Shown here: positions 1,419 through 63,907 of the stretch, one piece after another
Position numbering within the stretch: the first letter of the stretch is position 1
Layout: each line of letters starts with the position of its first letter
NCBI GenBank assembly: GCA_051362555.1
Contig: CM120645.1
Coordinates: 22,754,001-22,818,000, forward strand
Direction of reading: 5' to 3'
DNA length: 64,000 nucleotides
Origin: Lingula anatina
Taxonomy: Eukaryota; Animalia; Brachiopoda
Notes under the pieces: model-generated
Seen by the model: the letters and a program-made list of their open reading frames with translations, nothing else
What the model was told of the DNA's origin: nothing
The model's database searches: none
Program-made: the position numbers and the translations under genes

Positions 1419-1420
1419 AT

Positions 1421-1463
<43 letters not shown>

Positions 1464-1465
1464 TT
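1419..1465. repeat. (ATTT)n microsatellite
   Basis: About 11 consecutive ATTT units. Confidence 0.9.
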
Positions 1466-9028: not shown

Positions 9029-12873
<3,845 letters not shown>

Positions 12874-33277: not shown

Positions 33278-33883
33278 ATGGCTTGGTGGATTCCATACCT
33301 GCTTTTGCTTTTTTTGTCAGTAACTGTAGTAAACAGCCAGTTAGAGGTCACCATCAGAACCGGTAGAATACGAGGTTTCAGCAAAACAGTGAACGGGACA
33401 ACTGTGAACGAATTTTTAGGAATTCCCTTTGCCAAACCTCCAATTGGGAACCTTAGATTTGCAAAGCCCCAGCCTGCAAACCGCTGGGCAGGGGTGAAAG
33501 ACGCCACGGCGTATGGTCCAGCTTGCATGCAGAGACCCAACCCTTTTGGATTTCCTAATCCGAAGAAAGTAGGTTTAGTAACTTTATATTTAATGTTTTA
33601 AAATTAATTAAAAACAAAAGTTCTTTTATGAAATGCAGAGACCCAACCCTTTTGGATTTCCTGTCCCGAAAACGTGGGTACAGTGTATACCAAGTTCACA
33701 TCCTACTGTATTATGTAATCATAATCATAAACACCATTACGTGGGATTTAGGTGTAGAAATCTTAATTGTTTTTGTCCTGACCTGTCTCGTATAGTTCCG
33801 CCCGCTCCTGCGGCTCCGCAGGATTTCGTGAGACACAAGTCACCGTTACCGCTTCTCCTCCTAGACCGCATGTACCTGTAGCC

Positions 33884-33918
<35 letters not shown>

Positions 33919-35201: not shown

Positions 35202-35255
<54 letters not shown>

Positions 35256-37811
35256 TTTCCCATACGAATGCGCTTACTCCAGCTGGTGGTACAATATCCG
35301 GAGGTGGTATCACCCTTCTGATCCTCTAGTTTTCTTCTTCCTCTTTGGGCGCTCTGTCAGTACTATGATATTGATACAAACAACAGTTTCATTCATGATC
35401 ACATTTCATGAATTATTGATCCAAAGCTATCGATATTGGTATGGAGTTTATGGAGGAGACATATGCGTCATGTAAAATTATTTATCAACTTCAGATATCT
35501 GAAGATTGCCTGACGCTCAACGTTTTTGTTCCCGATACCCCTGGCGTTAAAGCTGTAATGGTCTGGATTCATGGCGGAGGCTACTACACAGGGGGCAGTT
35601 TTCACTATGATTTCACCGAATTCGGTAGGTCCACTGTGTGGCCCTTCATGGGTTATATACATGTGTAATCTGCTCTTTGTCAGTGCATCTACATGTATAT
35701 AAAAATGGAAAGAAAATATAAGGAAGAAAGAAAAGTGAATATCAAATATGAAATCAAATTCAATGAATCAAATTATATTTTCTATCATTTTGATAAGCTG
35801 CAAGAGGCGACATTATCGTTGTGTCATTGAATTATCGCCTGGGACCATTTGGTTTCCTGAGTATAGATGGCGCTAATGCACCTGGAAATCTGGGACTGTG
35901 GGATCAGATTGAGGGCCTGAAGTGGGTACAAGACAACATTGGAGCCTTTGGTGGTGACCCTAAAAAGTACGTTTGACATGGTTGTGACCTGTTTAAACTG
36001 TCGGCCTACTTGCTTGTCGGTCTTTTGTTTGAATTTTCGAGACTTTTCTGCTACTTGGGCTTGGCCAAAGCAGTGAAGGTAATACATGTTTTAGAAAATA
36101 TATATACTACATCGAATTTAAGAGACGTTGTTGTGTTTCCTCAAATGAGAGAATAAAATACATTTACCCAACGAATACTTCCTAGTGGTATTACATGATA
36201 TAATGATCCGAACCCGGTAGATTCAATAAATCAGATAAATACTAACGCATATAAGAACCCTGAAGGAGACGTGCATTTCGAATGCCTCCATCAAAATTTT
36301 TATCTTTTTTCAGGGTTACTACATTCGGGGAATCTGCCGGGGGTAGCAGTATCTCTCAGCTTGCTCTTACCGCAAAAGCCAAAGGCCTCTTTCACCGTTT
36401 CATTCCTCAGAGCGGGTCCGCCTGGGCAGACTGGACGTGGTCGACGGAAAAAGCTGCAACACTCTCTCTAAGGATTGGCGACATCATAGGCTGCCACGCC
36501 GGGCCAACAGAGAGGTCAAAACTCCTCGACTGTCTGCGAAAAACAACAGCTGAACGATTCCTAGACGCGAGTATCGTTGCTACCATAGGTGTCCCTGGCA
36601 CCCTCCATTACAGCGCTGAGGTCGACGGCGATATGTTTCCAGAATCCTTATCAGACATGTTTAAAAAACCTGATTCCGAAGTCATACAGCACTTTCGTTC
36701 TCTGGACTGTTTGGGAGGTTTCACTGACGGAGACGGGGCGATATTGATCCATGACATCGATAACGGGATCACCCCTGCAGAATTACGAGACAAGTTTATC
36801 CCTGATGTGGCGAAGCATGTCGCACCTGGCCACAAAGCCGAAATTGAGAACGTTCTAATGAAGGAATACTACAACAACGCAGCTAATCGATATGACACTG
36901 CTAACCGCTACGTCGACATCTTGACGGACTGGGATTTAGCAGGACCGATGGCAATTCTGACAGATAAACACGTGTCACCATGTGGTGGCTCTACATACCT
37001 TTACTACCTCACAAAGGTACCTTCATTTGGCTACGTTTTGAAATTCCCTCCTTGGTTCGATCGGTCCAACCACGGAGACGACATTTCGTATCTCCTTGGT
37101 CCAGATCACCCCACAATGTTTGATGACGGCGTCGAGTTTGATGACGGTGACAAGAGGATTTCTTACGAAATGATGAAGTATTGGGCAAACTTTGCTAAAA
37201 CAGGGTAAGTGTAGATCTGATAATTCTTGTGTTACAACAATCACTTACTTAAAGTATAGTTAACTTTATTTTGGGTAAAGAGTAGCATACAGCCGTGTAA
37301 ACATTATAGTTACCAAGAGATGTTTGCAAAAAGCCATTGTACGAGTTCGCCATTTCTCGTCTCAATTACGAAACATAAAACCCAAAATCGAGTTAAAGGG
37401 AGTAAATTTATCAACATATTTGTGTACAGTAAATATGGATGATAAGTGAAACTGCTGGAATTTCCAGAAATTTAGTTTTTCTACATACAGTTCTAACATT
37501 CAATGTATGTTGATGCCATGCACAAATGTACAGAACAGTTATCATTCGTTTAATAAAGGGATCCTAACAAACCAGACATGCCCACCACGACCTGGCCACC
37601 ATACACTTCAGACAAGAAAGAATACATCGAGTTAGGTGACGTCACCAAGTCTGCTTCTGACGTCATACCAAGTCGTTGGAAGCTGTGGGTGACCACCATC
37701 CCGGAGATCCAGGCGTCCCCCGTGGTCTCTAAAGCTCGCGGACGCTGTCCCCCGTATCTTTGTCATTGTTGCGGGTACGATGTCTGCCTGGACGACAAGT
37801 ATCTGAACTAA
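33278..37811 (+). CDS. Type-B carboxylesterase, divergent copy CE-5 (~577 aa, intact, Cys-rich C-terminal extension)
   Basis: Exons 33278-33568, 35495-35624, 35798-35966, 36314-37204, 37559-37811; same intron positions and phases as CE-1 to CE-4. Signal peptide, WIHGGGY, GESAGG, GDG, HGDD. Confidence 0.92.
33760..35331 (+). mobile_element. Composite non-autonomous repeat insertion(s), Helentron/HINE-like, in CE-5 intron 1
   Basis: Repeated TGACCTT(T/G)GA motifs, internal tandem duplications (~34620-34930), T-rich ends and a terminal ...CTCTAGTT; boundaries approximate. Confidence 0.4.
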
Positions 37812-38715: not shown

Positions 38716-40149
38716 ATGGTGAGTTAGACAAGATTACTTAGGAGTATTGTGCCCATATTTACTCATTCTCGAAATATAGGTTCATTTAACATTTTTTTTT
38801 ATTTCATTAAAAATAAGCGAGCGGAAGATTTGTTTGTCCAAGTAAAACTTTACTTACATCAGTCTAGCAATTTAAATCATTTGAAAAAAAAATTCTAGAT
38901 TTATCTGTTCTGGCCCAAAAACATGAACGGAGTAATTTTCAAACCTTCTTTGCTGTCCCTCGCAGCACCATCTCACATTCTCCTATTGATCTACTTCATT
39001 TGAACAAAAGTAGAAATTTTGCCACTTGTTAGGTAGCGAGCATGACGGCTAACGAGTAGGAAAGTGCCTGGAATGTTTATTGTAAATTTTTAAAACTTTT
39101 GTTACTCAAAACTTATTTACTGAATATGAAAACTGTGCAAATTAGCAATGCATGAACCTGAAAATGTTTGCATGTCATAGACAAAAGGCTATATTTATTA
39201 ATTACTGTCGCCAGGCCTTAAACAATTGAATTCATGAATATTCATGCATCTTTAACTTCATTTTTCCACTTTTCTGTTTTTTTTTTTTTTTTCAAATGGA
39301 ACTGTGTGTCTCGTTTAGATTGCATCACTATTCCTTTTTTTAAAGGTACTGCATCTCTTTTCCCTCCTGTGTTTCTTCGCATTGCCAATGGTGATGGCGG
39401 GAGAAAAATTGTGCATCGTCTACACTATGATTGGTCAGGGCAGCATCAATGCCGGCGAATTTTCCAGCGAGCAATGGTACCAAGTACACCGATATTTCGA
39501 TCGAAACACTAACGCCAGCATCGCAGCTGAAGGGAGAAAGTTCCTACAGTTTTTGAGAGAATGGTACGGCATCGACGCGGTCGTTGGTGATGATAGCTTG
39601 TCAGGGGTTGATCCGACCCCTGTGTCTTTCCAGACCACGTCACTAAACTTTACATTCGCAATTATGACTCTTCCACAGTCTGCTAAGTTTCAACTTTATA
39701 CGGAGTCGCGAGGCAAACGAGTTCGTTTTTACGCTACCAAGATTCAGAGTATTGGATGGATGATTACAATCGACAATCAGTTCACTGTGAGTGAGGGTCG
39801 AAACCAGGGAATGGAGGTGCCTGCAAGAAGTACCATTAAGTTTGAAGACGTCTATATGAGACCGGGGCCATTGGGATTCGACAGTGAAATAAAGCTACGT
39901 GCAGACGACCGTGTTCCAACTGTTCGCATTCCAATCCCATTGGGGCAATATACTAATATGACCGGGTATGACGTCACACAAGGAGAGTACGCCGTCTTCA
40001 ATCGCCACGTCATCAGTCTGACCAGACCCGAATTCGGTGACGGCGTAGCGTACGGGGTCCTTACTCTCTACGTGCACGGAAACGAATATCTGAATGATGG
40101 TCGAATGGTTATCACCTTCTGCAACCGTACAGAGAATGATCTGCCATAG
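38716..40149 (+). CDS. Uncharacterised secreted protein (~268 aa)
   Basis: ATG at 38716-38718 is followed directly by GTGAGT. The acceptor TTTTTTTAAAG at 39345 opens exon 39346-40149 in frame with ORF 39382-40149, giving signal peptide M-VLHLFSLLCFFALPMVMAG. Composition is coding-like, with several N-glycosylation sequons. Confidence 0.75.
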
Positions 40150-42531: not shown

Positions 42532-43701
42532 ATGGAGTTCATCAGCGGCATAACACCCTCAATTAGTACAGAAAACAGTAGCGTTCATTCCACGGGTGAC
42601 GATTACACATCTTTCCTAGTGCGCATAGCCACGGAGCAGGTCACGCCAAGCACGAACAATGGTACTTTGGAAATTGTGGCACTGAGACTAAGACAATATG
42701 GCCGCCCTGTCATTTGCACCCTTGGAGTGGTCTGCAGTTTGCTGTCCATTGTCGTGTTCAGTAGAAAACGACTGCGCACTACACCAACATGTCTACTGCT
42801 CCTGGCGGCGGCCTGTGGCGACTTATTAACCACGCTGAACGGGTACGTCCCCTGGCTGGAGTACGATCTTCCGGACCTTCACGTTCACGCGCTCACGTGC
42901 AACGCCTTCATGTGCCGGCTGTCTGTGTTTGCGTGCTTCTTCGGACCCGAATTGAGCGCGCTCCTGCTTACGTCCATGGCGTTGGAACGTTACATCAAGC
43001 TCGCGAGGCCCATGGTTCACGCTTTATACCTCACCGTCAGTAGAACACTGATCTTCATTGGTTTCTTAGCTTCTGTTCTTATCCTTCTGAACATTAACAT
43101 ATTTATATCTGACATATACTTGGAAAAGGTGGATGGGAATAATACGGTTTGCTGGAATATGTTCCACGACAGCGTTGATTTACTAAGGAATAAGACAAAC
43201 GCTTCAGCCATTACCTACTGGCAAGTACACAGATGGATAGCGCTAACGTTGTATTGGATCATCCCCTCAGTTTTACTGCCCGTCTTTAACATCGCGTTCA
43301 TTGTTTCTTTAAAGCGGCGCCTGACGGAGCAACGCCCAAGTGAAGAACCGTCGTCAAGTTTTAACGAAGACTTGTTGGCAGTGATGGGAACGCATGAGGA
43401 CCCCAGATGGGCAGACAGTGACCCCGATAAAGAGGTCACGGTGATGTTAGTGACGGTCACAGTGGCGTTCATTCTGTTAACCAGCGGGTTTAACTTGGTG
43501 CAGGTGGGTCTGTTAAAGCTTTTCAACCCTGACAAACCTACGACACAAACGCCAGTTAATAGTTTAGTATTCACGGTCTTCATCCTGCTGTTCTACCTGA
43601 ACCACGCCTTGAACTTCTTCCTGTACTGTTTCAGCGTGCGGACGTATAGAAAGGAATTTTACGACCTATTTCGCAACCTGCGTTGTACTTCCAGCTCATA
43701 A
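42532..43701 (+). CDS. Rhodopsin-family (class A) GPCR, FMRFamide/peptide-receptor-like or chemoreceptor-like, intronless, 389 aa
   Basis: Seven hydrophobic segments, LA..D in TM2, C at the top of TM3, MALERY (DRY variant), P in TM5, NHALNFFLY (NPxxY variant), YRKEF helix 8, N-terminal glycosylation sequons. Confidence 0.88.
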   Translation: MEFISGITPSISTENSSVHSTGDDYTSFLVRIATEQVTPSTNNGTLEIVALRLRQYGRPVICTLGVVCSLLSIVVFSRKRLRTTPTCLLLLAAACGDLLTTLNGYVPWLEYDLPDLHVHALTCNAFMCRLSVFACFFGPELSALLLTSMALERYIKLARPMVHALYLTVSRTLIFIGFLASVLILLNINIFISDIYLEKVDGNNTVCWNMFHDSVDLLRNKTNASAITYWQVHRWIALTLYWIIPSVLLPVFNIAFIVSLKRRLTEQRPSEEPSSSFNEDLLAVMGTHEDPRWADSDPDKEVTVMLVTVTVAFILLTSGFNLVQVGLLKLFNPDKPTTQTPVNSLVFTVFILLFYLNHALNFFLYCFSVRTYRKEFYDLFRNLRCTSSS

Positions 43702-47043: not shown

Positions 47044-48647
47044 CTGGTCCAGACTCATAGTACTTCTCTTCGTATTCTTCTTCCACATAATTCAGCAACA
47101 GTCTGATGGGCTGGGCAAGCTACAGGGAATTAAGATATTTTGTGAGCGATAAGATAAGACTCATAACATTTAAAGGAGATAAATAATAGCGGTCGACCGT
47201 TAAACCAAGTTATGTAGTTTTAGGGGTTATCTTTAACAGGCAAAAGTAGGAAAACGACTGAGTAAGTCAATTTTAAGTGGGTTCTGCTTTGTCTGAGTTA
47301 CATTTTAAACTTACTGTAACTATCCTTTTTACGTAAAATGAAGAAAGAACGTAAAGAGAAGACACAAATTAACACGAGGGTTCTTCAACGACATCAAGTA
47401 TCCGTGTGTTACATAATGGTTGAACAGACAAAATATTTATATCAGTCACGCTATCTGGACTCTTCATTCACATCAGGTATCTTTGGTGTTACGTACATAT
47501 TGAACCGATAAAATAGTTGCATCGTCAAGAAAATATCTATAGGCCTACTTTTATGATCTCTATACACAAGCCTCAAGGCTCAATCTCCCAAGCTTTAAAG
47601 TGTTGCTTTCCCTATGACATGTGACACGACACACAATAGCACAACAGTTTGAACTTGGCCATATAAAAGAAGTGTGATACGCGTGTTTTGGTAAAGAGGT
47701 CGCTTCGTATATAGACATGTAGGCGTGTATAAGCTTTCCAACTCGCAGCTGTGGTATTTATAATAATAATCACTCATCACATTTATTAACTTTTAGCTTT
47801 GACAGATATTTTATTCTTTATTTTACCCCTTATTTATATTTTTATGTAAGCACAATAGAGTAGTGTTAGTAGTAGTTTAGACAGCGAACAATGTTGTAAC
47901 ACTTATAGCTGAATAAATTATTAAATTATTTAGGTAAACATCCTTTATTGTGGTATCACAGTCAACACATGTAAGCAGCACTGTATGTCTAAAAGCCAGA
48001 CCCTCATTGCTGAATCATTATAAGTTCATTACCAGCGTGACGCTTGTGACCTCTTCTATCTTTTGTACGTCGAGAAGATTTACCGTCGCAAAGGCAAGCC
48101 ACCTTTGATGGATGTTTTAGATCACAAACGCGGCAGGTGTGTGGGACTTCGACAGTTTTGTGCTGAGCATTGCTCTCCGCACTGCAAGAGCAAAGTCCAG
48201 CCAAATTGATAACTTCCTTACAGTCATCCGTTCGCTGGATTCCTTATCAAGATGATATCTACCGGTATATACTACACACCGGGGATTTTACGGATACATA
48301 ATATATTACTTATGTAATTTTGGTCCTGCAGCAAGGGACGCTGTTCAAACACGCGTCCTCACGGACCCTGCTCTGAATCGTGTTGTTTTGATAACATGGA
48401 TTCTAACTAGTGCAAGATGATCTATCTCTGATACCTCCTTAACTAGGGCATGAGTCGACTGACAGTCCCGAGACTCATTAACTATCCTGTTTACATGTTT
48501 AAAAACACGGCAAACCAGCAATAATTTGGTTAGAAGCACGCTTAATTATAACCTGCAAATAGAAAAGGGCACATCCACAACGTTCTGTTAGATGCAAAAA
48601 GCATTAATGAACATACCCCTCTTTGCTTCCAGTACCCCAGCACGGGC

Positions 48648-49214
48648 TGTTAAGTCTCAATTTTCGTCGGTTAGACTTTACGAGAAAATAATGTCACGTT
48701 AGATAACGCGCCGGTTCTTGGGCCTTAGTGTTGTGCGCCCAGCTGATCCAGTAAAACGAACAAGATTCTCATTTGATGCAAGTGGAAATTTAATACTGTC
48801 TTTTGGAAAATATACAGAGGTTTCTTCTACATAGTAACTGTCAGTCCAAAATGTATAATGATATCGCCAGAGCCAAAATACGATATGCCCTCACCTTAGA
48901 AGAGGGCAGCCTTTATAGATCATTCAGGAATTTTAATAATCCAGGAAGACGTACACTTGACTGAGCGCAGTCCTTTCGTCTCCGGCTCTGCCTCCACTCC
49001 GTCACCGTGTTTCCTGGATCATTCCCACCCCTCTCAGCCTTCAAAGGCATTCCTGAATTTATCTCCGGTTATCATCATTCCTGAATGTCTATTGACTGTC
49101 CCCTTCTAAGTTTATCTTAAGATTATTTTAATTTTAAACGTCCACGTTACTTTAAGATTATTTTAATTTTAAACGTCCCCGTCACTTCTAAAATACCCAA
49201 AGTGGTATTTTACA
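48648..49214 (-). repeat. 3' LTR (567 bp)
   Basis: No mismatch to 56119-56685 found by eye; candidate poly(A) signal ATTAAA on minus at 48789-48794. Confidence 0.95.
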
Positions 49215-49231
49215 CCACTATACTACCCACC
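49215..49231 (-). other. Atypical polypurine tract
   Basis: GGTGGGTAGTATAGTGG abuts the 3' LTR on minus; only 12 of 17 bases are purines. Confidence 0.45.
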
Positions 49232-49553
49232 GGTTGAAATGTTCACATTTCAACTACAAGAAATTAAAATAATATGTTAAATATGCTTCAATAACGTCTA
49301 CTTTAAAAATCTATCCTAATAAACATAGAATCATAGATATAAATATAAGGTATTAAAGTAACCAACATTTGTATACCCTTGAATTGTAGTAATACTAATT
49401 CAATACTCAGATATATGTACAAATAGTGCATATCCGCTTCGTGATTATGGCATCAATTAAACTTTTACCGTTAATTGACAAATTACTGTATGGTATAACA
49501 TGATATCAAACAAATACACCTTAAAAGGTAAACCCCACGCTTAAACCAGACCC

Positions 49554-51659
49554 TTAAATCGCGTGTTGTTCCATCAGCATATGCAACGGAGGTGCAGGAA
49601 GCGACTCGTTCAACGCTAGTTGTTCTTGGGCCGTCAGCGCCTGCGCCTCAGGTCCGTGAACCGTCAGTGTGTCCGAGGTTGCTGTCAGCTCCACCGGGAC
49701 ATAAGTGATGGTCTCACAGTCGTTAGTACTATTGGCTGTTACCGTACGCTGATGAACAGGGCTGTCCGGTGCTGAAATATGACTCAACTCAAGTTCATTT
49801 GACATGGGTTCATATAAAGCGTTATCACATTCCTCATTATGTCCACTAGACATTTCTGATTTCCGTTTATTGGCGTGATGGCTTTTTTTAATTATTTCCC
49901 GCCAATTACATCGCCGATACCCACATATTACAATCAGAATCACCCCAATCACAATGAGGGAGCCAGTGGTCGTTCCAATTACTAATTGTCGCCTAAATTT
50001 GTTAGCAAAAAATATAGAAAAGGGATTCGGTTCATCGCTTATCGGAGATAGCAATATACGTTTAACTGGTTGTAAAGGTGTTAATTCGTCAGGTTTCATG
50101 ATGTGCAAAGCTACGCTAGCCGGAATAATATTTTGTACCTGCAAAGGTTTTATATCATTTACCATGAGTGCCTTAACGCTTACTTTGCCCATCCGTTGTT
50201 TTAAACCCGGTAGTGTGAAGTTGGTGGCCGTTATGGAACAGCCGTCACTTACATGTATCAGGTAAACCCCTGGCCATAGGGTATGTGACACAGCAGGTGA
50301 CCGTGGACACCGTGTATATATTGTTTCCCCCGAAGTGGTAAGCGCGTAATCCCCTAACGCTAACTCTACTGCCTGCGACTGTACATACCTAGTTAATTCT
50401 ATTTCACATGCTCGCCTATGTTTCACCTGCCCGGTGATCAAGGCCCTGGAGCATAGTTCTATACCAGGTCGAAACATCGGTCCTGACCTGCATACAATGG
50501 GTCGCCACCCTTGGCAGTTCGAAGGGTGAAAGATGTCCCCCGTGATAGGATCAATCCCAACGTTGGTGAACGGAATTATTACCTTTGCTGCTATCCCGGA
50601 CGTGTTGTATGGTGCGGGGAAGCTAAGAATCCGGTATTTCTGGTATACCCGCTGTGCAATGAGGGGTAACTTTACCCTGTATATCAAAGTCTCACCTCCC
50701 CATGCTGGATTGACCACGACATGCTCGTAATACCAGTTGATCGGTTGAATTGGCAAAGATGTAACATTCACTGTCGCTGTTGTCAAGATATCCTGAAGTT
50801 GGTCGGGCGGAAGCAGTTCTTCTGTTAAACGACCCAATTCAAGGCTTGCTTTCTGTCTTAAGTATTTCTCCATAGCTGTTTGAAATGCCGATACCATACG
50901 TTCATATTCCGATACTGCTAATTCGATTTGAGAAGCGCAATATAAGTTGTTCAATTTACCTTGTGTTATATTTAATTGTGAAACTACTGCTGGAAAATTG
51001 TGAGTTACAAAATTTCGAATGTATCGTTGAATGTTGTTTATACTTTGTCTCCCTTCATCTATTAAATCATAAGTGTGGTTTAATACTGATACGAGATCAT
51101 TAACTTTATGAACAAGTAGTTTATTTTGATGTCTGGTCTCCTGAACAATCTTAGTAACTTCTGCTAAATTTTCGTCTGTGGATAGGCCAAAAAGACTGTG
51201 AAAGGCGTCACCAACAAAATTCAGCAATCCTCTTTTGGGACGTAAAGCTAAACGATGGGATGAATCATAGTGATATTTCGTTATACTTAGCGTTGTCAGC
51301 GTCCGAAATTTCTCTTTGCAGAAGTCGAGTCTTCCCATCCACAGGTCAGCGTTTCTCCTAGTGATAGTACGGGAATCGATGAGGTTTTGAATTTGCAGTT
51401 TGAGTTTAGCTAACTGGACCCAATGGTCGTCTGTGAAGACAGGGCGATCCACGGTTACGAGTAAGTTCCACTCTGTCGTTTGGATAGCCATGTCTACCCG
51501 TCCGGTGACTAAAACGCCGTCTGGTATCGGTATCACTTCAGATGTGGCGTCCGTGTGTATTCTAGCAGATGACAGCAGAGCCATCCATATTAAGATGTGC
51601 TTGAAGCCCCTTCCTTTCTCCGTTGTTTGGACGAAGGTTGTGCCTCGGGACTTGGACAT
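49554..51659 (-). CDS. env: Envelope glycoprotein, class-I fusion (baculovirus F / errantivirus Env-like), 701 aa
   Basis: N-terminal hydrophobic segment (ILIWMALLSSA), furin site RPKR (51242-51231) followed by fusion peptide GLLNFVGDAFHSLFGL, heptad-like helical region, Cys-rich ectodomain, N-glycan sequons, TM LVIGTTTGSLIVIGVILIVICGY (49985-49917), ~120-aa tail; lies between IN and the 3' LTR. Confidence 0.88.
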   Translation of the reverse strand: MSKSRGTTFVQTTEKGRGFKHILIWMALLSSARIHTDATSEVIPIPDGVLVTGRVDMAIQTTEWNLLVTVDRPVFTDDHWVQLAKLKLQIQNLIDSRTITRRNADLWMGRLDFCKEKFRTLTTLSITKYHYDSSHRLALRPKRGLLNFVGDAFHSLFGLSTDENLAEVTKIVQETRHQNKLLVHKVNDLVSVLNHTYDLIDEGRQSINNIQRYIRNFVTHNFPAVVSQLNITQGKLNNLYCASQIELAVSEYERMVSAFQTAMEKYLRQKASLELGRLTEELLPPDQLQDILTTATVNVTSLPIQPINWYYEHVVVNPAWGGETLIYRVKLPLIAQRVYQKYRILSFPAPYNTSGIAAKVIIPFTNVGIDPITGDIFHPSNCQGWRPIVCRSGPMFRPGIELCSRALITGQVKHRRACEIELTRYVQSQAVELALGDYALTTSGETIYTRCPRSPAVSHTLWPGVYLIHVSDGCSITATNFTLPGLKQRMGKVSVKALMVNDIKPLQVQNIIPASVALHIMKPDELTPLQPVKRILLSPISDEPNPFSIFFANKFRRQLVIGTTTGSLIVIGVILIVICGYRRCNWREIIKKSHHANKRKSEMSSGHNEECDNALYEPMSNELELSHISAPDSPVHQRTVTANSTNDCETITYVPVELTATSDTLTVHGPEAQALTAQEQLALNESLPAPPLHMLMEQHAI

Positions 51660-54600
51660 AACGCCGCTCTCTTCTTATAACGGGTATTGTAGCTATGATC
51701 TGCCGGTCTGCGTAGCTGTGGTTCTCTATCTGTCCAGCTATCCCACTCTAATGACGTCTCGGATTCGGCAGAGTCAGAGTCGGTATCGTCTTGCTGATGT
51801 GAAGTCCCCTCCTCTAACTGATCTCTCAAAGGTGGCACTGGAGGTATTATAGCAGTCTCGGGGGTGGCCTTTTTCCTTGAGTTACGCAACGGTCGTGGTC
51901 TGACCTCATCCCAAGCTATATCAGGATCAACTACGCGTAATTTATTTCGATTCACGGTTATTATCTTTCCAGATAGTTGATTCCTAATTTTGAACACCTT
52001 TCCCCACTTATCAATAACCTCCCATTCCGGATCCCACTTTGAAGTTAGGGTTAATCGTTCCTGGGCTTTAACCACTACCGTGTCACCAATTTGGATAAGA
52101 TCGGCATTGGCTTTTGCATTAATTCTGGAAGGGTTATATTGCCTGGAATTTTTAAGATTCACTTGGGCGCAACGAAGCGCTTTAGACATTTCCCTTAACC
52201 GACCATGCAATGCGTTTGTCTGACTGGTGGCTTTTAATGCTTTAGTCAGTGGCAGTCTCCCCCTTCTACCGTACATCAAAAAGAACGGTGTAAACCCTGT
52301 GGATGAACTGGGGCTATTGCGATAAGCACATACCGCATTTCCTAATTGGTTTTCCCATTGAAGTGCATCATTGTCGACCAATTTCGCCAACAATTCTTTA
52401 ATGGTTCTATTTACTCGTTCAGTTTTACCATTTGATTCAGGATTATGACCTGTAGTTGACCTATGATTAATTCCCAAATCTGTCAGAAATTGTCTAAAAC
52501 TTAGACTTTGGAATTCCCCACCCTTATCCGTGATAATAATTTCCGGAATACCATGTCGCGGGAAGAAATCTTTTGCCAAAACTGCCTCCACTTCTAAGGA
52601 AGTTTTATTAGGTATAGGATATGACTCGACCCACCCAGATAAATGATCGATGGCATTTAAAATGTATCTATTGCCCTTATCACTTTCCCGAAACGGACCA
52701 ATTAAATCTAACCCAACAATCTGCATGACATACGATGGAATAGGCATTTCTCCAAATGGCGCGTGTTGTGCCCGCGATTTATGTACCTGACATACCGGAC
52801 ATCGTTGCAGCTGCGATGTAATATCCCGTCGGATTCCGGGCCACACGTACGCTTCCTGTACTCGGTGTTGTGTTTTCGCAGCCCCCATGTGGCCAATTTC
52901 TTCGTGACATCGCTGGATCACCGCCTCTCTGTATTGGAAGGGAAGTACTAAACGTGGATAGACAGCAGCTGTACGCGATGGTTTCTTTACTGAATAAAGT
53001 AACCCATCTAATACTGCAAGGTCCGAATCTTCTGTTCCCGCATTCTTAAACCACGCTTGGAATTCTTCTTCCTGTTCTCCGCGTAACTTCTCTGGTAGTA
53101 AATCGTCTGCTTCTAGGGGTATTCGTTGAGCAGCGTCTTCATCCGGAAGCGCGTCCGGGTCCACCCATTCATCTGTGTCGAAAGTGGCGACCTCTGGTGG
53201 CGGCAATCTACTCAAAACATCCGCTCGTACGTTTTTCTTACCTTGTATATATTCTATCTTCGCCCCAAACTCGGACAGCAGCATAGCCCAGCGTTGTACT
53301 TTGGTGTTGCGCATTTCAGCCGTGAATAAAGATCGTAAAGGTTTATGATCCGTGAAGATGGTAAAATCGGACCCGATGAGATACGGACGTAGTTTACTGA
53401 CGCAGAAAATTAAACTGTAGGCTTCGCGTTCAAGTGTGGACCAGCGAAGAGCCGGTCCTGACAAGGATTTAGAGACATACTGTATGACACGTTCCATTCC
53501 ACTGTCATCTACCTGAACTAAAATGCCCCCTACCGCGTAATTGGATGCATCCGTATACAAGCGATACGGCCTGTCTGTTCGGGGATACGCCATAATCTCA
53601 TTCGAACACAACTGATCTTTTAAGGTTTGAAATGCCTGTTGTTGTTCGTCCCCCCATACATATTTCTCGCCCTTCTTGGTAAGTTTGTATAGGGATGATG
53701 CTGTGTGAGCAAAATTGGGAATGGTTCGCGAGTAATACTGACACATGCCGAGAAAAGACCGAATACCCTTGACCGATTTTGGTGGTTCTAAGGCGGAAAT
53801 TGCTTTTGTTTTCTCGGGATCACTACTGATACCATCGGGGGTCACAATGTAGCCTAAAAGTTTAATTTCTTGTTGGGCAAATGAACACTTTGAAGGTTTT
53901 AATTTTAAACCGGCGTTGCGCAATCGCTGAAATACCTGACGTAAATGTTCTGCATGTTCTTCTTTTGTCTTACTAAACACGCAAATATCATCCAGATAAA
54001 CAAAACATGATACTCCGATAAGGCCACTCAGAACCGAATCCATCATGCGTTGAAAATACGCAGGTGTAATGGACAACCCAAAAGGACAACGTAAGTATTC
54101 AAATTGACCCAGATGACAAACAAATGCTGTCTTTTCAATATCCTTTTCAGCAATGCGAATTTGTGTGTACCCTGAACGACAATCTAGTACTGAAAACCAC
54201 TGTGCTCCACTCACCTGATCAAAGATGTCCTGAATGAGGGGTAGCGGGTACCTTGCGGGTGTAATAAGCTCGTTCAATTTTCGGTAGTCCACACAAAATC
54301 TCGTGCTGCCATCCTTCTTTGGTACTAGTGTAACGGGAGAGGCCCATGGACTGAAACTTGGTTGAATCACATTATCTTTCAACATTTCTTCAATTTCAGA
54401 TTCTATAAGTTTTCGCTTCGCTAGTGGTGTGCGATATGGTCTCTGTCTAATGGGCACATGATTACCCGTATCTATAGTCATCGGTTCCACGGTACTTAAA
54501 CCGTGCGGTTCACCTTTTACACTAAACACATCATTAAAATCAGTCAAGACCTTATCTATTGCCTCGTGACCCACAGGAGTTGCTTTTAAAAGTGCGGTAC

Positions 54601-54988
54601 ATAAATCAGTATCTTGTTTGTCTTGATACTGTTTATATTCAACCAGCGGCCATTCCCTACGACACCAATACAGCGTATTAGTGTCATAATTAATGACTCC
54701 CCTGTGTGCCTGAAGCGTGTCATTACCCAAAATCATTTGATGGTCAATATTGTCTACAATGAGCATCTCTACCACATTTGCAAAGTCAATACGAATTTGA
54801 GCCGTTCCTAACACAGTAAGTTGCTGACCCGTTATACTAATGACGGGTTGTGTACTTTTCACTAATCTAGGTCTACTAGTCATCGCACATAATTTCTTAA
54901 ACACTGAGTAATGGAGCAGAGAGGTACTAGCGCCCGTGTCAACTAATGCTAAACAAGGTTCCCCATTTAAAGACACACTAACCCCCAT
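51590..54988 (-). CDS. pol: Pol polyprotein: aspartic protease, reverse transcriptase, RNase H, integrase
   Basis: LVDTGAS (PR); SPWASPVTLVPKKDGSTRFCVDYRKLN, PFGL, YLDD (RT); LYTDASNYAVGGIL, TDHKPL, ADVLSR (RH); H..IGH...CPVC, DLIGP, TDKG, NGKTERVNRTIK (IN). Gypsy domain order; no stops. Confidence 0.97.
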   Translation of the reverse strand: MGVSVSLNGEPCLALVDTGASTSLLHYSVFKKLCAMTSRPRLVKSTQPVISITGQQLTVLGTAQIRIDFANVVEMLIVDNIDHQMILGNDTLQAHRGVINYDTNTLYWCRREWPLVEYKQYQDKQDTDLCTALLKATPVGHEAIDKVLTDFNDVFSVKGEPHGLSTVEPMTIDTGNHVPIRQRPYRTPLAKRKLIESEIEEMLKDNVIQPSFSPWASPVTLVPKKDGSTRFCVDYRKLNELITPARYPLPLIQDIFDQVSGAQWFSVLDCRSGYTQIRIAEKDIEKTAFVCHLGQFEYLRCPFGLSITPAYFQRMMDSVLSGLIGVSCFVYLDDICVFSKTKEEHAEHLRQVFQRLRNAGLKLKPSKCSFAQQEIKLLGYIVTPDGISSDPEKTKAISALEPPKSVKGIRSFLGMCQYYSRTIPNFAHTASSLYKLTKKGEKYVWGDEQQQAFQTLKDQLCSNEIMAYPRTDRPYRLYTDASNYAVGGILVQVDDSGMERVIQYVSKSLSGPALRWSTLEREAYSLIFCVSKLRPYLIGSDFTIFTDHKPLRSLFTAEMRNTKVQRWAMLLSEFGAKIEYIQGKKNVRADVLSRLPPPEVATFDTDEWVDPDALPDEDAAQRIPLEADDLLPEKLRGEQEEEFQAWFKNAGTEDSDLAVLDGLLYSVKKPSRTAAVYPRLVLPFQYREAVIQRCHEEIGHMGAAKTQHRVQEAYVWPGIRRDITSQLQRCPVCQVHKSRAQHAPFGEMPIPSYVMQIVGLDLIGPFRESDKGNRYILNAIDHLSGWVESYPIPNKTSLEVEAVLAKDFFPRHGIPEIIITDKGGEFQSLSFRQFLTDLGINHRSTTGHNPESNGKTERVNRTIKELLAKLVDNDALQWENQLGNAVCAYRNSPSSSTGFTPFFLMYGRRGRLPLTKALKATSQTNALHGRLREMSKALRCAQVNLKNSRQYNPSRINAKANADLIQIGDTVVVKAQERLTLTSKWDPEWEVIDKWGKVFKIRNQLSGKIITVNRNKLRVVDPDIAWDEVRPRPLRNSRKKATPETAIIPPVPPLRDQLEEGTSHQQDDTDSDSAESETSLEWDSWTDREPQLRRPADHSYNTRYKKRAALCPSPEAQPSSKQRRKEGASSTS

Positions 54989-55017
54989 ACGAGCCTTCTT
55001 ACGCCTCTCTGCTTGAA

Positions 55018-56073
55018 CTAGTTTAAATGATCAAAAGGTTGCTGTTTCTTACGTAAAGCTTTGAGTTGGTAACATTCTGCCTTTACATGGCCTACTTTAC
55101 CACAATGAAAACATTTTATCTGTCCGTCTGCCGTCCATCCCTTACTGTCCTTAGACGATTGAGGCGGTTTGCGTGGGTGCTGTCTTGTGTTGGATGACGT
55201 CATCGGTGGCTCGCGTTGAGCTGCGCTTTTCAACGCAGATAAGATCGACTCTTTTAGTTCGGTAGCCCATCGTGGTACTTGGTCCACAGGTTGTGTCGCC
55301 CCGATTTCCATTGGCTCCTCTATGCGGCGTTGAGTGTTGCTATTTCGGTCTCCGTAGACGGTTTGAAATAGGAGATCACCCACCTCTTCATTGTCCACGT
55401 ATCTCATAGCTTCTTGCAACGTTGACGGTCGTCCCTTCCGTATCATGTCCCTAGCGAGGCGAATCTCATGCAGGCCCCGCGTATAAGCTTTAATTAACAG
55501 GCGTTCCGCTTCCTCGGATCGCGGAAGTGGGTATGCTTTCCGCGCCACGTCTCTGAAGCGGCGATTATAGGACGCCGTGTTCTCAAATTGTGATTGTTTT
55601 ATTCGTTCCAATTCGGCTCGAATGCAACTAGTTTCATCGGCGGAAAGAAAGACCCGTCGAATATGGTTTCGTAGCACCGTCCAGTCCGTTCCAAAATACT
55701 CTGGCTGTTGATTTAAGAAATAATCTATCTCACCTGCCATTGACCCTTGTGCCGTCTGCAGTGCCAGTTTAATTGTGGCGTGTTCAATTTCCTCCGTCCG
55801 GGGAATTGTTCGTTCAATTTGGTCAATCCAGTCTCTCGTGTCGTCCGGAATGGACCCATCACAGGGTTTAATAGCCCTGCACAGTACGTCCAATTTTGTC
55901 TGGTGCTCACCCTCTATTTTCATGCGTTCCATCCTCGCATTTCGAGCATCTTCCGCTCGCCATCTTTCCTGCATTAAATTTCTCCACTGTCCATCTTCCT
56001 GGTGCGCCTGCACCGTTGTTTTTGCCAAAGCTGCAACTCCGGCGGACAGCTGCTGAAGAGAATCTGGATTCAT
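55018..56073 (-). CDS. gag: Gag (capsid plus CCHC nucleocapsid), 351 aa
   Basis: Starts 45 nt after the 5' LTR; IKQSQFENTASYNRRF (MHR-like), EPMEIG, zinc knuckle CFHCGKVGHVKAEC. Confidence 0.93.
   Translation of the reverse strand: MNPDSLQQLSAGVAALAKTTVQAHQEDGQWRNLMQERWRAEDARNARMERMKIEGEHQTKLDVLCRAIKPCDGSIPDDTRDWIDQIERTIPRTEEIEHATIKLALQTAQGSMAGEIDYFLNQQPEYFGTDWTVLRNHIRRVFLSADETSCIRAELERIKQSQFENTASYNRRFRDVARKAYPLPRSEEAERLLIKAYTRGLHEIRLARDMIRKGRPSTLQEAMRYVDNEEVGDLLFQTVYGDRNSNTQRRIEEPMEIGATQPVDQVPRWATELKESILSALKSAAQREPPMTSSNTRQHPRKPPQSSKDSKGWTADGQIKCFHCGKVGHVKAECYQLKALRKKQQPFDHLN
55021..55027 (-). promoter_or_regulatory. -1 ribosomal frameshift slippery heptamer U UUA AAC at the gag/pol junction
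   Basis: gag ends CAT TTA AAC TAG; the -1 frame reads CTA GTT CAA GCA GAG AGG CGT AAG AAG GCT CGT ATG GGG..., open into pol. Confidence 0.85.
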
Positions 56074-56098
56074 TTCGTTAGATCGCTAAAAATTAAGT

Positions 56099-56116
56099 CC
56101 TGAAAAGAGCTCGCCA
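56099..56116 (-). other. Primer-binding site (TGGCGAGC...; tRNA-Arg-like, partial match)
   Basis: TGGCGAGCTCTTTTCAGG begins 2 nt after the 5' LTR; TGG complements the tRNA CCA end. The tRNA identity is tentative. Confidence 0.65.
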
Positions 56117-56118
56117 AT

Positions 56119-56685
56119 TGTTAAGTCTCAATTTTCGTCGGTTAGACTTTACGAGAAAATAATGTCACGTTAGATAACGCGCCGGTTCTTGGGCCTTAGT
56201 GTTGTGCGCCCAGCTGATCCAGTAAAACGAACAAGATTCTCATTTGATGCAAGTGGAAATTTAATACTGTCTTTTGGAAAATATACAGAGGTTTCTTCTA
56301 CATAGTAACTGTCAGTCCAAAATGTATAATGATATCGCCAGAGCCAAAATACGATATGCCCTCACCTTAGAAGAGGGCAGCCTTTATAGATCATTCAGGA
56401 ATTTTAATAATCCAGGAAGACGTACACTTGACTGAGCGCAGTCCTTTCGTCTCCGGCTCTGCCTCCACTCCGTCACCGTGTTTCCTGGATCATTCCCACC
56501 CCTCTCAGCCTTCAAAGGCATTCCTGAATTTATCTCCGGTTATCATCATTCCTGAATGTCTATTGACTGTCCCCTTCTAAGTTTATCTTAAGATTATTTT
56601 AATTTTAAACGTCCACGTTACTTTAAGATTATTTTAATTTTAAACGTCCCCGTCACTTCTAAAATACCCAAAGTGGTATTTTACA
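56119..56685 (-). repeat. 5' LTR (567 bp)
   Basis: TGTAAAATACC...CTTAACA on minus; TATAAA at ~56388-56383; 27-bp direct repeat TTAAGATTATTTTAATTTTAAACGTCC twice in U3. Confidence 0.95.
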
Positions 56686-59600
56686 GGGCGGCATGTTGTG
56701 GAGTAACAATGAGATATTCAAGCTCTGAGGATGGACCGCTAGATGGCGTGGATGTGTTGTTAGTCCTTTGGCTGCAAATCGTAGTTTAAAGATCGGTCTG
56801 AAAGATGCATATTAAGCGAGTCGACATATCAAAGCATTGCAACTTATCCCAACCAAATGGCATCATCTTGTTCCAAACTGCATAACTTAAAGCAATACTA
56901 TTGATAATCGTTTCACCCCTCCCCCCCCCAAAAAAAAAATAATAATAAAAAATAAATAAATAAATTCTGCTCTTTCTGTGCGACCAGTTATACAATTCTA
57001 AAGAAGGCTCTGCTATTCTTTTCTAATCCATGCTTCCTTGAACATGGCATTTGATTTTCCCTATAAAAACAAATTTCCGTGAATTTATCAAACTTACAAT
57101 TGATCGCGAGAAAGAACCAAACGAAAAGAGAATCATCCCAAAATGTACTGTAACTTTCAGGTAGAAGAAATTATAATAAATTATTACCGAGTTGGTGGAA
57201 TAATACATTGTCTTAATAAAGACTCACTGGAATTACAGATGCAATATTCTGTTGGAATATTCATATGATTTTAGCAAAAGTGTATTAATTGCCAATAATA
57301 GGCGTCAATCACTCCGCCTGACCCAGAATGTTTAGATTTACCCAACATTAGGCCGCATTATCGATACTCTCATTCTACGATTCTCACCTTGATCTCATTT
57401 TCCGCGTTTTGTCTATCTTTTTTCAAAGTTTGAATGAAAGCCTATTAATAAAGATGTGTGAACATGAAAAAGTTTGTTGTAATCGCATCCTGGGTTCAGT
57501 TAAACAATCTTGTTTCGAATTTTGTCCACATAAGCATTGCAATTTTCCGCTTCTTTAATTAACTCACCAACATGGATTTTCTTTATTCAAATCCTCCCTC
57601 CGCAATACGTTCATTTTAACGTATACCCAACATTACAACACTGATCGCCATTAAAACACAATAAAAACTCTCAAGTTACAACATACCAATGATGGAATTA
57701 ACTACCTGAAATTCAATACGTTCAACATCGTGCCATCATTACAATAACAGTAATAACAATTACAACAGACTTACAACTCTTAACATACCAATGAAAAAAC
57801 TGATCGCCTCATACTTCAGCAAAAAACATCAAAAGTACAAGACTGGACTTATATAATGAATAACTCTGGTGTCAGCCACTTCATAATTGTGAGACGGCGA
57901 AAACGTTGGCCTCTCTATACGGTAATTACTCGATCTTTTCAATGGGGAAAAATTATCACACTTTCAGATACATCATTTTATAATCTCAAATATTTCTATA
58001 TAGCATTTGTGGTGTTTTTACTGCTTAGTAAAAAACTATAAAACAGTCTGCTATTTAATTTTGTTGCTACCACTCAATAGAAATTTTCAAATTAACTGAG
58101 GAAGTTGCGACATAAAATACTGTATCTGTAAAATTCACAATTCCCCCCCCCCCCCCCCCCCCCCCCCAATGAAAAGATCGAGCAATCACTGTATCTCATG
58201 CACACCTACACGTATTTGGAATGTTCACTTTTAGCACAACCACACACATATAACAGATGTCTGCCAAATATGTATCACATAAAGAATAGAATTTTAAAAC
58301 TATAACGTAATAACATATATCTCCGTGATATACATGTACCTACCATATTGCAGCAGTAATCAGCCGTTTACATATATGTAAATAGGAATATGCACAAGCA
58401 AGTAGAGGACTGGTTAAAATGTTTGGTGGATCCAGTGTAGCTTCTCTCAGCTCAATAACACGTATGTACTTTGCTAAAATAGGTATTTTTCAAATACATT
58501 TTCAGCTGATAACTGCACAATTGAACAAAACTTTATTAAAATTATTTTCAAAAATCATTTTTTGTTAAAAAAACTTTACTCCCACATGAAAATCATCTGC
58601 ACCAGGGAAATTTTTCTCTTAAAATGAAATGTACAATGTCTAAACCAAATATCAGTTTTTGTCTTTGAACAATAATAATAATAGCGCCAATCATTCCATT
58701 GCTTATAATCTTTAGGTTGACATTCATCTAATCACTAAGGGACTTTAAGGTAATGCTTACCATTCAACTATTGAAAAAAATCTAATGGCACTTAAAGCAA
58801 AATAACCCCCATATAAAACCTCCCATTTGCTATTCAATACAAAACATATCACCAATGATACACTGTACCCCAAACTCATAATCCCTTCCACAAAGTTTAC
58901 TTCACGACTAACTGAACACCTATGTTAAAGAATTACATAGCTTGAACAACAGACATTAACTGCATTAAGAGGGGACTTTAATAAGCAGTGGAAAAATGAG
59001 CCAACATTTTATATCATTTAATATAATATAATATAATATACAGTAAAGAAATGTAAAAACACATCAGCAAAACCTGATTTACAGCTCGATGTGCAATGGG
59101 CAGATTTTCAGGGTATATATGTAACAATATCGTTAAACTTTATACAGATAATGGAATATGACATAATGAAATAGCATCCATCTGCCTGTGTCAAATGACA
59201 TTTAACCAGTCCACACAAGAAAAAAGGTAAAATTTTCATAAAATGAAAAAAAAATGACACCTACAATTTGGCTTTGAAGATTAAAACCTATAAAGTCAAC
59301 TTAGAGAAGATTTTAAATAAGTCACCCTATATTGTGTATAATATATACAAAGTTATCTGCACTGGATAAAAATATCATTTAGTTGCCATTGTGGTGGATA
59401 CACATTAAAAATACATGTGCATCTCTTAAAAAATAGAAAAAAGCAGCACTTGACTAGATATGGCCCTCTGATGTGGCCATTCACAAGGAGTATGAGAGGA
59501 AACTGAGAACCACCCCCACTATCAGCATACCTGGGCACACCTGGTGTTACTCGGGGTGTAACCAGCTTGAATCAAGATGTATTAATATTTGACTAGAAAT

Positions 59601-60901: not shown

Positions 60902-63642
60902 TATGCGCATGCGTGCGTGCATGTGTGTGTCTTCAAAATCTAAAAACTGCATAATATTCATGCTAAAACAATTAAATCTGACCTACCTATCAAACTGTGT
61001 AACACTGATAATATGATCAAACTCCTTGTACTGTTTCTCTGTGGTAAGCTGTTTCCTGGCCAGTTCAGCAGCCATTGCTATCATCTTCTCCAGCTCTTCT
61101 GGCTTAGCCACATCATGCTTACCCTGGGGAGGAGAAAAACTGGTGAAATAGGGTTCATCACTTTTTCTTGTGTAATGATGATAAAAAATTGTTTCTAAAG
61201 CGATTAAAGGGCAACTCAATGGGATTTACCTGGGGAAATCAGCAATTTTCTTGTACTCTAGAATCATTTATCTATCCCTCTCTGCACTTGGATTCAACCT
61301 TTCATTGAATCTATAAATTCTTCAAATGTGAAATTTCAAATGCAATGTAATGTATAGAAATTCAAACTATATGTTACTGAAGATGGCAATGAATACAGAA
61401 TACCTGGGAAATAATGTTATAAATTTCTGTACAAAGTTCAGTGACAAAATACAATGCACATTGACAATAATTAATACACCTGATATATATGACCATGAAA
61501 AACAAAGTAATAAAAACTATTACAAACAGATTGGAGGTAAAAAGATGTTCCTATAAACACATACCTGTAAAAGCAGCGCCACTGTCGCGGCCACCATGAC
61601 GGCTGCTGCCAGACATCGCGGCTCACTGTGGGTGGCCTTGCATATCCTCAGTGTGTTAGCAACCACCTCCTGGTAGTCATGGAAATGTGGAACACCTGGG
61701 AGATATTAAACATTGCTTATAAGTCACTACGTCATTCTCTGTTGCTGTTTAATCACACATTACATAATTATCATAGAAGGTTTAAAAATAGTTTTATAAC
61801 TTAATGGGCCTTTTGCCATTTTGGCGATATTTTTCATCATGAAAGTTGAAGATATTATCTTAGAGTGACATCTAGCTGAAAGAGTATACTTTTGTCCTTA
61901 AAATACTCCTCAGGGCAAAGAACAGTACTACTTGTATAAAGGATGTGACTTTGTTGTCCAGTACAAGTACACGGATCATTTACAACTATAGAACACTCTC
62001 ATACCTAGGACAAGACACCTTGACAGAGCAGCATTATCACAGAGAATATCCACATCACCATTACAGTTCTCTCCATCACACTGGTCATGTGACTGGTCAC
62101 ATGTCTGGTCATGTGACTGCTCCACCAGCGATCTGGCTGCAATGTGAGGCTTCTCTGTGAAATACGGTGTGTTCACGACCTGAGGTGATAGTGACAGACA
62201 TAATGGAATATACATGTAGATGTAGAACATTTCCATGGCATTCTATATACCTTATGAAATATCCTATTGTTAGTTGTATAGGACACCATAAGAATCCTAC
62301 AGACGTCCTATAGGATTTTTATGTGGAGATTAACATTTGTTAATCTGATTTAAACGCATCACACAATGCCCGCTGCCTTGTAGGTTGCGTGAGACCCTAC
62401 AGCGCCACCTGCGGTAACGCCCCCTGCATGTAGTTGCGCGCGCATGTTAGACCGTTAAATTCAATTTCGCATCTTCAACAGTGCAGCGCCGCACGCTTTC
62501 CGCTTATGGCTTTTTAATTCCCACCCTCCCACTCTATATTTAGTGTCTGCTTTGCTTGTGGGTACTTATAGAATCTTTTCATATTTCTTATTTTGTAAGC
62601 TTTATTTTACATCTCACGGGGATTTTGTATTTTTGCCTTGAGTACCATAAGACCGCTACGTGGCTCTGAGCTTTAAAGAATTGTTTTTGGTTTTAGTTTA
62701 GTGTAGTGTTATTTAGTAATCAACCAATAAACTTTTCTAAGCCTGTGTTGTGTGTTTGTGTTTAACTAGGAAATACATCCTACTATACGACCCTATGGGA
62801 TATTTCCATATTGGGTATAAAAAGGGTTGTTGATACAAACATGATCTACAATTTTTTTTATACATAACGATTGGAATAACAGTTGAAAGCTAGAAATGTA
62901 CTCCTCACTTTATGAAAGTCATGTTGCTATTTTTAGTTATAAAAAAATCTTCAAATTGTCATTGTCTATGATTTACCTTGGTTATAGTATTACTGAACAC
63001 AATTCCCTCAGAGTCTCCCAGCTCAGTGAACCCATGGTCAGACCAGTGCTTTAGTCTTTTGGCAAAGTCCAGTTCATCCACCACGCCTCCCCACTGGTCA
63101 AGAGAATCCAGCACCAGAGCCTGGAGGAAGAAATAAAAAGTACTCCTTGATTTTCTGGAGAAAGGAAATAACATAAATCACACATCGTATGGTTAAAATC
63201 ACAGCTCCAAATATTACAACAGCCATGTTTGCAATTGTGGTTTTCTAAAATATTTCCTGATCGACTGCTTTTTATATTATGATTTATAATAGTGACTAAA
63301 CAACAGGAGATCCATACAAAAAAATCTTAGCATAACACCACTGATCAATACACGATCCTTTGAGAAATAAAAATTAAAAATTACATTCAGTACTGCACTC
63401 AAATGATTCAGTTTCACTATATTCCCAGTTTTCATGGTTTTCCCCATACTTCCTACTTGTACTCACACATTGATCAAAGTCCACAGTCCAGTCCCCCTGT
63501 CTCCAGCGTACTCTGTGCTGATCCCGCACAATGTCACTGTAGGTCAAGGTCTCTGGTTCGTAGTAAAATTGTGCCTCTTGCACTGGCATGAACTCCGTGG
63601 CCAGCCCTATGGCATCCCCTATTGCAGCCCCATACAGCAACC
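60031..63642 (-). CDS. ADP-ribosylglycohydrolase (ARH/DraG/crystallin J1) family protein, last seven exons; 5' part not within the window
   Basis: Exons 63642-63467, 63120-62977, 62179-62005, 61695-61565, 61123-60987, 60770-60681, 60223-60031, phases consistent. Motifs GLLYGAAIGDAIGLATEF, GDWTVDFDQ, ATHSEPRC, GGDSNSNACIAGGFLGCRVGYSQLPTPWITGL. Confidence 0.88.
62246..62818. mobile_element. MITE-like element with degenerate TIRs in an ARH intron
   Basis: Left TATACCTTATGAAATATCCTAT versus the reverse complement of the right end TATACCCAATATGGAAATATCCCAT. Confidence 0.4.
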
Positions 63643-63681
63643 CTACACAGTATATGATATTAATTATAGTAGTGTACTCAT

Positions 63682-63907
63682 AGGGTGCTTTCCCAGAGAT
63701 TTAGATCGATCTAAAGCTTAAGTTTTAGATCGACCTAACTCCCTGGGGGTTCACGCTAAATTGCAGTCAGCCGAGCGGACACCATAGTTAATTACCCCCT
63801 TACAGCGCTTAGTAGGCGGGACAGACGCTTAAGCCGGCCAAGCTGACAGTAATCTAGTGAGACTCCCCATAGGGATAGATCGATCTAAAAATCTATGGAA
63901 ATGGGGT
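63682..63907. mobile_element. MITE (same family as 32918-33157)
   Basis: Imperfect TIRs ...TTTCCCAGAGATTTAGATCGATCTA / TAGATCGATCTAAAAATCTATGGAAA; internal homology to 32918-33157. Confidence 0.7.

Follow-up and report, generated by a model that had tools for sequence, protein, structure and literature searches.

Endogenous elements of the Ty3/gypsy group that combine long terminal repeats (LTRs) with gag, pol and an envelope gene (env) have been catalogued across animal phyla by Chary and Hayashi (eLife 2026, PMC13524379), who list 1,512 intact gag-pol-env elements, 1,386 of them multicopy (the sources cited here were accessible in part, and statements about them apply to those parts). Members with an F-type ENV occur in annelids (many rows), molluscs (46 rows), nemerteans and a hemichordate, and all ten bryozoan rows are of the gB type. 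None of the 1,512 rows in the accessible table belongs to Brachiopoda or Phoronida, and the older Lingula anatina assembly LinAna2.0 appears there with 11 POL and 17 ENV regions under the entry 'No intact copies' (PMC13524379). According to the same source, a 'mini' domain, also present in Tf1, marks an ancient group of these elements, and insect elements have a second, 'pseudo' RNase H. In Drosophila, env is expressed from a spliced RNA and serves passage from soma to germ line (PMC12992720, PMC13524379). Here, we analyse a stretch of 64,000 nucleotides from L. anatina (assembly GCA_051362555.1, contig CM120645.1, positions 22,754,001 to 22,818,000; hereafter, the window), which contains, on its minus strand, an 8,038-bp LTR element running from 56685 to 48648.

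The element shows every tested feature of the operational 'ancient, F-type' errantivirus group, namely open gag, pol and env frames, an F-type ENV and a mini domain, and its identity as an 'ancient' F-type errantivirus is very likely. A first-pass annotation, made from the letters alone, had put it forward as the best candidate for a novel system in the window. That proposal falls, because intact Ty3/gypsy elements with an F-type env are already catalogued across metazoans in the accessible parts of the survey (PMC13524379); the element represents a known kind of system, and what is new is its brachiopod host. No report of a brachiopod errantivirus was found in the literature covered, where searches on the subject yielded PMC13524379, PMC12440569 and an annelid genome preprint; Repbase, Dfam, subscription journals and bioRxiv supplements, which lie outside that scope, may hold the family.

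Architecture and termini of the element

The features of the element and its borders, in window coordinates, are as follows.

48644..48647, no strand: left copy of the target-site duplication, GGGC (from sequence)
48648..49214, minus strand: 3' LTR, 567 nt, TG...CA, 0 differences from the 5' LTR
49215..49232, minus strand: purine-rich tract adjoining the 3' LTR, imperfect, by its sequence the probable polypurine tract
49233..49553, minus strand: AT-rich 3' untranslated stretch (from sequence)
49554..51659, minus strand: env, 701 aa, F-type (Pfam Baculo_F, 32.4 bits against a cut-off of 24.1)
51590..55030, minus strand: pol, 1146 aa, with protease, reverse transcriptase (RT), RNase H, 'mini' bridge and integrase with SH3-like C-terminal strands (Pfam, fold model)
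55018..56073, minus strand: gag, 351 aa, one CCHC zinc knuckle (Pfam zf-CCHC above cut-off)
55021..55027, minus strand: T TTA AAC, slippery heptamer for a predicted -1 shift out of the gag frame into pol
56109..56116, minus strand: primer-binding site core TGGCGAGC, probably for tRNA-Arg(ACG), judging from an 8-nt match
56119..56685, minus strand: 5' LTR, containing TATAAA (LTR position 298, putative promoter) and ATTAAA (position 421, putative poly(A) signal) and no AATAAA
56686..56689, no strand: right copy of the target-site duplication, GGGC (from sequence)

Alignment bore out the perfect match of the two 567-nt LTRs that had been noticed by eye, and their identity ends exactly at the LTR limits. 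The GGGC duplication is likewise present on both sides (a four-nucleotide match between flanks is expected by chance about once in 256), and the primer site begins 2 nt past the 5' LTR, agreeing with the listed tRNA-Arg(ACG) end at 8 of 12 nt. An Rfam scan of the window gave no matches, and hence no host tRNA to pair with the primer site. The leader is short, with about 46 nt between the 5' LTR and the gag ATG. The LTRs with their TG...CA termini, the target duplication, the primer site and the purine tract, together with the domain order of Pol and its closeness to Ty3, place the element among the Ty3/gypsy (Metaviridae) LTR retroelements. Each of the three genes, gag, pol and env, was found only once in the window.

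Each LTR has, close to its U3 end (49112-49187 and 56583-56658), two AT-rich repeats at a 35-nt spacing together with short palindromes; these may be enhancer sites.

Gag, Pol and the predicted frameshift

The three long open frames with catalytic motifs described in the first pass were all recovered. Gag, counted from its own ATG, has its CCHC knuckle at residue 321 and scores just under the Pfam cut-off for Retrotrans_gag; the knuckle and the short leader are both unlike gypsy and ZAM. The pol frame measures 1146 aa from stop to stop and 1132 aa from its first Met, and its 3' end overlaps the start of env by 70 nt. Pfam recognises the protease, RT, RNase H, integrase zinc finger and integrase core of Pol in the Ty3/gypsy order, with the motifs DTGA (residue 31) in the protease, YLDD (345) in RT and DAS (494) in RNase H, and the integrase has an HH-CC zinc finger and the triad D775/D835/E871 with D-35-E spacing. 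The closest solved Pol is that of Ty3, both by sequence (E 9e-110) and by fold (TM-score 0.84 over Ty3 RT; PDB 4ol8, 7q5b).

In the Pol model (87 sequences, mean pLDDT 85, residues 1041-1146 left out of the model), a single RNase H is followed by three helices, three short strands and then the integrase zinc finger. The bridge, of about 100 aa, shows the 'mini' pattern (H461-494, E502-505, E508-511, E524-526), and the predicted RNase H and 'mini' domain fit the 'ancient errantivirus' group, as judged against the accessible text of PMC13524379. The duplicated pseudo-RNase H of insect errantiviruses was not found in the modelled bridge, and no Pfam chromo match at E up to 0.1 follows the integrase. 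The nearest Pol relatives in the databases share 53-62% identity with it over RT-RNase H, and no relative was found among the viral contigs scanned with Pol. The RT tree (122 sequences, rooted on P0022, no rows left out) gave the element one sister, P0023, with support 0.986; its backbone is weak and provides no named clade for the element.

The frameshift site that had been proposed was also recovered: the heptamer sits inside the 13-nt gag/pol overlap, in gag phase, with pol in the -1 frame. Its location in this overlap is unlikely to be due to chance, since 28 heptamer-like sites occur over the 8,038 positions of the element. Downstream lies a modest hairpin (-14 kcal/mol, a value without a shuffle control).

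An F-type Env

The env frame reads open for 701 codons from its own in-frame ATG. The predicted protein has a weak signal-like stretch at residues 22-32, an RPKR furin-type site at 140-143 followed by a fusion-peptide-like hydrophobic segment and long helices, a transmembrane helix at about 560-585 and then a long tail, along with 12 cysteines and 7 N-glycosylation sequons. The furin motif and the fusion-peptide-like segment are kept in all six aligned Env sequences. The top ESM Atlas matches are Baculo_F clusters (0.96), and the Env alignment profile matches the PDB 'fusion protein' 9w4d (E 3e-6). Taken on sequence, Env has the F-type features of furin site, fusion peptide, membrane anchor and Pfam family, and its predicted structure corresponds weakly to the F fold.

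Relatives of Env comprise four database sequences (33-42% identical) and four metagenome loci (28-30%), and none was found among the viral contigs scanned with the Env alignment or the genome contigs scanned with Env. The first-pass annotation had named a near-identical env in an already catalogued family among the findings that would count against it; neither this nor the others it named turned up, the best env match being 42% among the database relatives, a comparison that does not include the catalogue's own sequences. In two of the four metagenome loci (L002 and L004), an integrase lies directly upstream of env, and all six contig sizes of the env cluster P0004 recur in the pol cluster P0013; this adjacency and co-occurrence argue that the pairing of pol and env is old and stable.

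The metagenome contig L002 (1-10553) has the order pol end, env, gag and pol again, its pol ends being identical over at least 300 nt at a spacing of 9,224 nt; its env and gag are separated by a 53-nt tandem repeat. The contig represents a related element with env, in tandem or circular arrangement.

Comparison with related elements

The catalogued 'ancient errantiviruses' with F-type ENV resemble the brachiopod element in their gag-pol-env order, LTRs, tRNA primer site and several near-identical copies, as well as in an F-type env that has a furin site and a fusion peptide and in the RNase H with mini bridge; Arg(ACG) primers, like the probable primer here, are found in annelid and rotifer members. 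They differ in host phylum, and the primer-site sequence of the brachiopod element occurs in no row of the accessible table (PMC13524379). Drosophila gypsy, ZAM and Idefix share with it the three open reading frames and an Env with signal peptide, furin site, fusion peptide, cysteines, anchor and tail (PMC12992720). Insect errantiviruses carry a pseudo-RNase H, which the brachiopod element lacks, and Drosophila elements splice env; here env has its own in-frame ATG, and no splice joint occurs among the few RNA reads (102). Of the two fungal elements compared, yeast Ty3 has the closest solved Pol by sequence and fold, and Schizosaccharomyces pombe Tf1 shares the mini domain; both differ in lacking env and in their hosts. 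The F proteins of baculoviruses (Ld130), paramyxoviruses and pneumoviruses are of the same Env family and give the top fold matches, although identity is 9-15%, the model is of low confidence and the gene here resides in a retroelement. Troyka was rejected as a comparator, having no envelope and unusual termini (PMC12440569).

The element fills a phylum-level gap in the one broad survey, in which brachiopods were screened and scored without an intact copy (PMC13524379). It can therefore serve as a further test of the claim that, from pre-Cambrian times onward, env and pol have moved as a pair along with their hosts, which predicts that it groups with the F-type elements of annelids and molluscs. 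Moreover, as the element is young, probably polymorphic and present in an animal on whose embryos laboratory work is done, it could be used to address soma-to-germline passage outside insects.

Age, related copies and deleted derivatives

The absence of differences over the 567 LTR positions (95% upper bound of divergence, 0.53%) leads us to conclude with high confidence that the element was inserted recently, as the first-pass annotation had held. Parts of the window are contained in ten sequencing runs from four studies under one organism label, none of them listed as an RNA run; four DNA runs (X1, X3, X9 and X10) were compared. Internal contigs are 99.6% identical to the element in X1 (17 differences in 4,262) and 99.5% in X3 (15 differences in 2,811), and they are deeper than the flank contigs (290 versus 26-59 in X1; 32 versus 8-12 in X3). 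Contig depth is not copy number and was taken as a hint only; together with the identities, it hints at several close copies. Older pieces are about 96% (X9) and 93% (X10) identical, and parts of the internal region were uncovered in these two runs at 90% likeness, where contigs show presence and not absence. Recent LTR expansions have been described in L. anatina (PMC13121700).

In X3, one contig matches the left flank as far as 48643, immediately ahead of the duplication, and continues with 265 letters unmatched there, which probably represents an empty allele in one sample. The close copies and this probable empty allele fit recent movement. Among the core differences, 13 of 17 are listed, comprising 9 silent and 5 replacing changes (one site counted in both frames), and the core differences within env are 5 silent and 2 replacing. 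A high-depth contig covering the env tail has 18 differences, 6 silent and 12 replacing.

Joints at 50462-54871 (X9; short side 23 letters), 51997-56111 and 55522-55937 (both X10) and 50898-54490 (X17, RNA), along with X12 RNA loose ends that join env codon ~575 to primer-site/LTR-like sequence, point to internally deleted derivatives of the element. At 49937 and 49559-49931, X12 RNA reads and the end of a deep X1 contig suggest a short non-autonomous derivative with only the env tail between LTRs.

Expression

Expression was assessed in four RNA runs (with X11, X12, X14 and X17 among the labels), of which 6-25% each was read, amounting to 9.5-12.4 million records. Reads from the family are present in all four runs, at a very low level (8-41 per run). 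Most derive from diverged copies, most lie at the 3' end, and all eight X14 reads are at least 99% identical and extend into gag and env. Since the reads are few and come mostly from diverged copies, the element family is weakly transcribed.

Proposed mechanism and alternative explanations

We favour, as the likely explanation, a recently inserted, intact gag-pol-env Ty3/gypsy element with an F-type env that is predicted to be copied through RNA and would use Env for passage between cells within the animal. Replication would follow the known Ty3/gypsy cycle. The 5' LTR would drive genomic RNA, on which ribosomes would slip by -1 at T TTA AAC and so produce Gag-Pol; the genomic RNA would be packaged by Gag, a tRNA, probably Arg, would prime reverse transcription, and integrase would insert the DNA copy with a 4-bp duplication. 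By analogy with Drosophila gypsy and ZAM, Env would be translated from a subgenomic RNA and, once cleaved at RPKR, would fuse membranes, so that particles from somatic cells may enter the germ line. Whether Env still serves cell-to-cell passage, a role suggested by that analogy, we regard as evenly poised. A further-reaching version seems doubtful: an active, cell-to-cell infectious and polymorphic brachiopod endogenous retrovirus, the first intact F-type one in lophophorates, whose Env is translated from a start codon of its own and which carries a swarm of short deleted satellites, built of LTR, primer site, env tail and LTR, that are packaged in trans.

Several points weigh against the explanation we favour or parts of it. 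Transmission outside Drosophila is unknown according to the accessible parts of PMC13524379, and identical LTRs and intact frames date the insertion, not present activity. RNA reads are scarce (41, 39, 8 and 14 per run), those at least 99% identical number only 6, 1, 8 and 0, no env splice joint occurs among the 102 reads of the four runs, and read orientation differs between runs, where no control gene fixes the strand. The primer-site match spans only 8 nt. For Env, the ESM recognition value (1689) is below the range where such scores count as strong evidence; moreover, because the fold model is poor (pLDDT 48, pTM 0.32) and its top Foldseek matches, respiratory syncytial virus F and baculovirus F, have TM-scores of 0.1-0.25, the fold gives weak support. 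X1 may be the source sample of the window itself, its listed flank contigs showing 0 differences, and is thus not independent evidence, and the empty-site joint is absent among the 15 of 46 joints listed.

Two alternatives take the element as real and are not mutually exclusive with its anatomy. The more serious, which we consider possible though short of even, is that the young copy is now silenced by small RNA or chromatin and that older copies or antisense transcription account for the few reads. The very few RNA reads, most with 5-8 differences, favour this, as do the X11 and X12 first mates, which lie on the coding strand and would be antisense in the commonest stranded library type. Against it, the tissues of the runs are unspecified and only the stated fraction of each was read, the 3'-end pile-up is as expected of polyadenylated sense RNA, and the X14 reads (8/8) are near-identical to the element and reach into gag and env; silencing would, moreover, be compatible with the anatomy of the favoured explanation. 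The other alternative, which we judge unlikely, holds that the element retrotransposes within germ cells, that env has recently become an idle passenger and that the family is drifting to env-less or deleted forms, like the Drosophila lineages without env-F. It would account for the many deleted derivatives in X9, X10, X17 and X12 and for the excess of replacing over silent differences (12 to 6) in the env-tail contig, and loss of env-F on a shift to germline replication has precedent (PMC12992720, in its accessible part). It is less easily reconciled with an env that keeps 701 open codons, a furin site, its cysteines and a membrane anchor, with the 5 silent to 2 replacing differences in the core env and with the same env standing beside pol in distant relatives.

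That the element is an assembly artefact, its LTRs made identical by read collapse, or DNA of a symbiont or contaminant is highly improbable. Assembly can homogenise identical repeats, and the G+C content of the element (45%) exceeds that of its flanks (37-38%); yet the TG...CA ends, target duplication, primer site and purine tract are all correctly placed, parts of the stretch recur in the ten runs from four studies noted above, and an X1 contig crosses the right junction with 0 differences, with 29 LTR letters, below the 31-letter rule.

Neighbouring genes

None of six window proteins was present in the protein collection by exact sequence. A single-exon, rhodopsin-type G protein-coupled receptor (7tm_1, Srw-like) at 42532-43698 (plus strand) has L. 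anatina proteins as all six of its matches at E up to 1e-20, at 34-38% identity, and belongs to an apparently Lingula-specific expansion. Four closely similar carboxylesterase genes lie in tandem at 8700-31700 (minus strand), with a diverged fifth on the opposite strand at 33300-37750 (plus). The best match of a carboxylesterase exon is an L. anatina protein (75%), single exons reaching 73-95%, and the oyster match is at 31%. The matches of the receptor and the esterases to L. anatina are at the level of paralogues. With neighbouring genes closest to L. anatina proteins, the non-insect, lophotrochozoan host surmised in the first pass proved right.

At 4259-6366 (minus strand), an exon with a VWA domain and a Ser/Thr-rich stalk, which contains four 99-nt repeats and leads into a membrane segment, probably form one mucin-like surface protein. 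An open frame of 252 aa at 39391-40146 (plus strand) has a hydrophobic start and no Pfam match, and its exact sequence is absent from the protein collection. Exons at 61500-63700 (minus strand) look like, and may belong to, an ADP-ribosylglycohydrolase gene (YGAAIGDAIG...DWTVDFDQ). Finally, a very high-copy short repeat at 57916-58100 shows inverted joints in all four DNA runs at depths of 1,300-9,400 and is like a miniature inverted-repeat transposable element.

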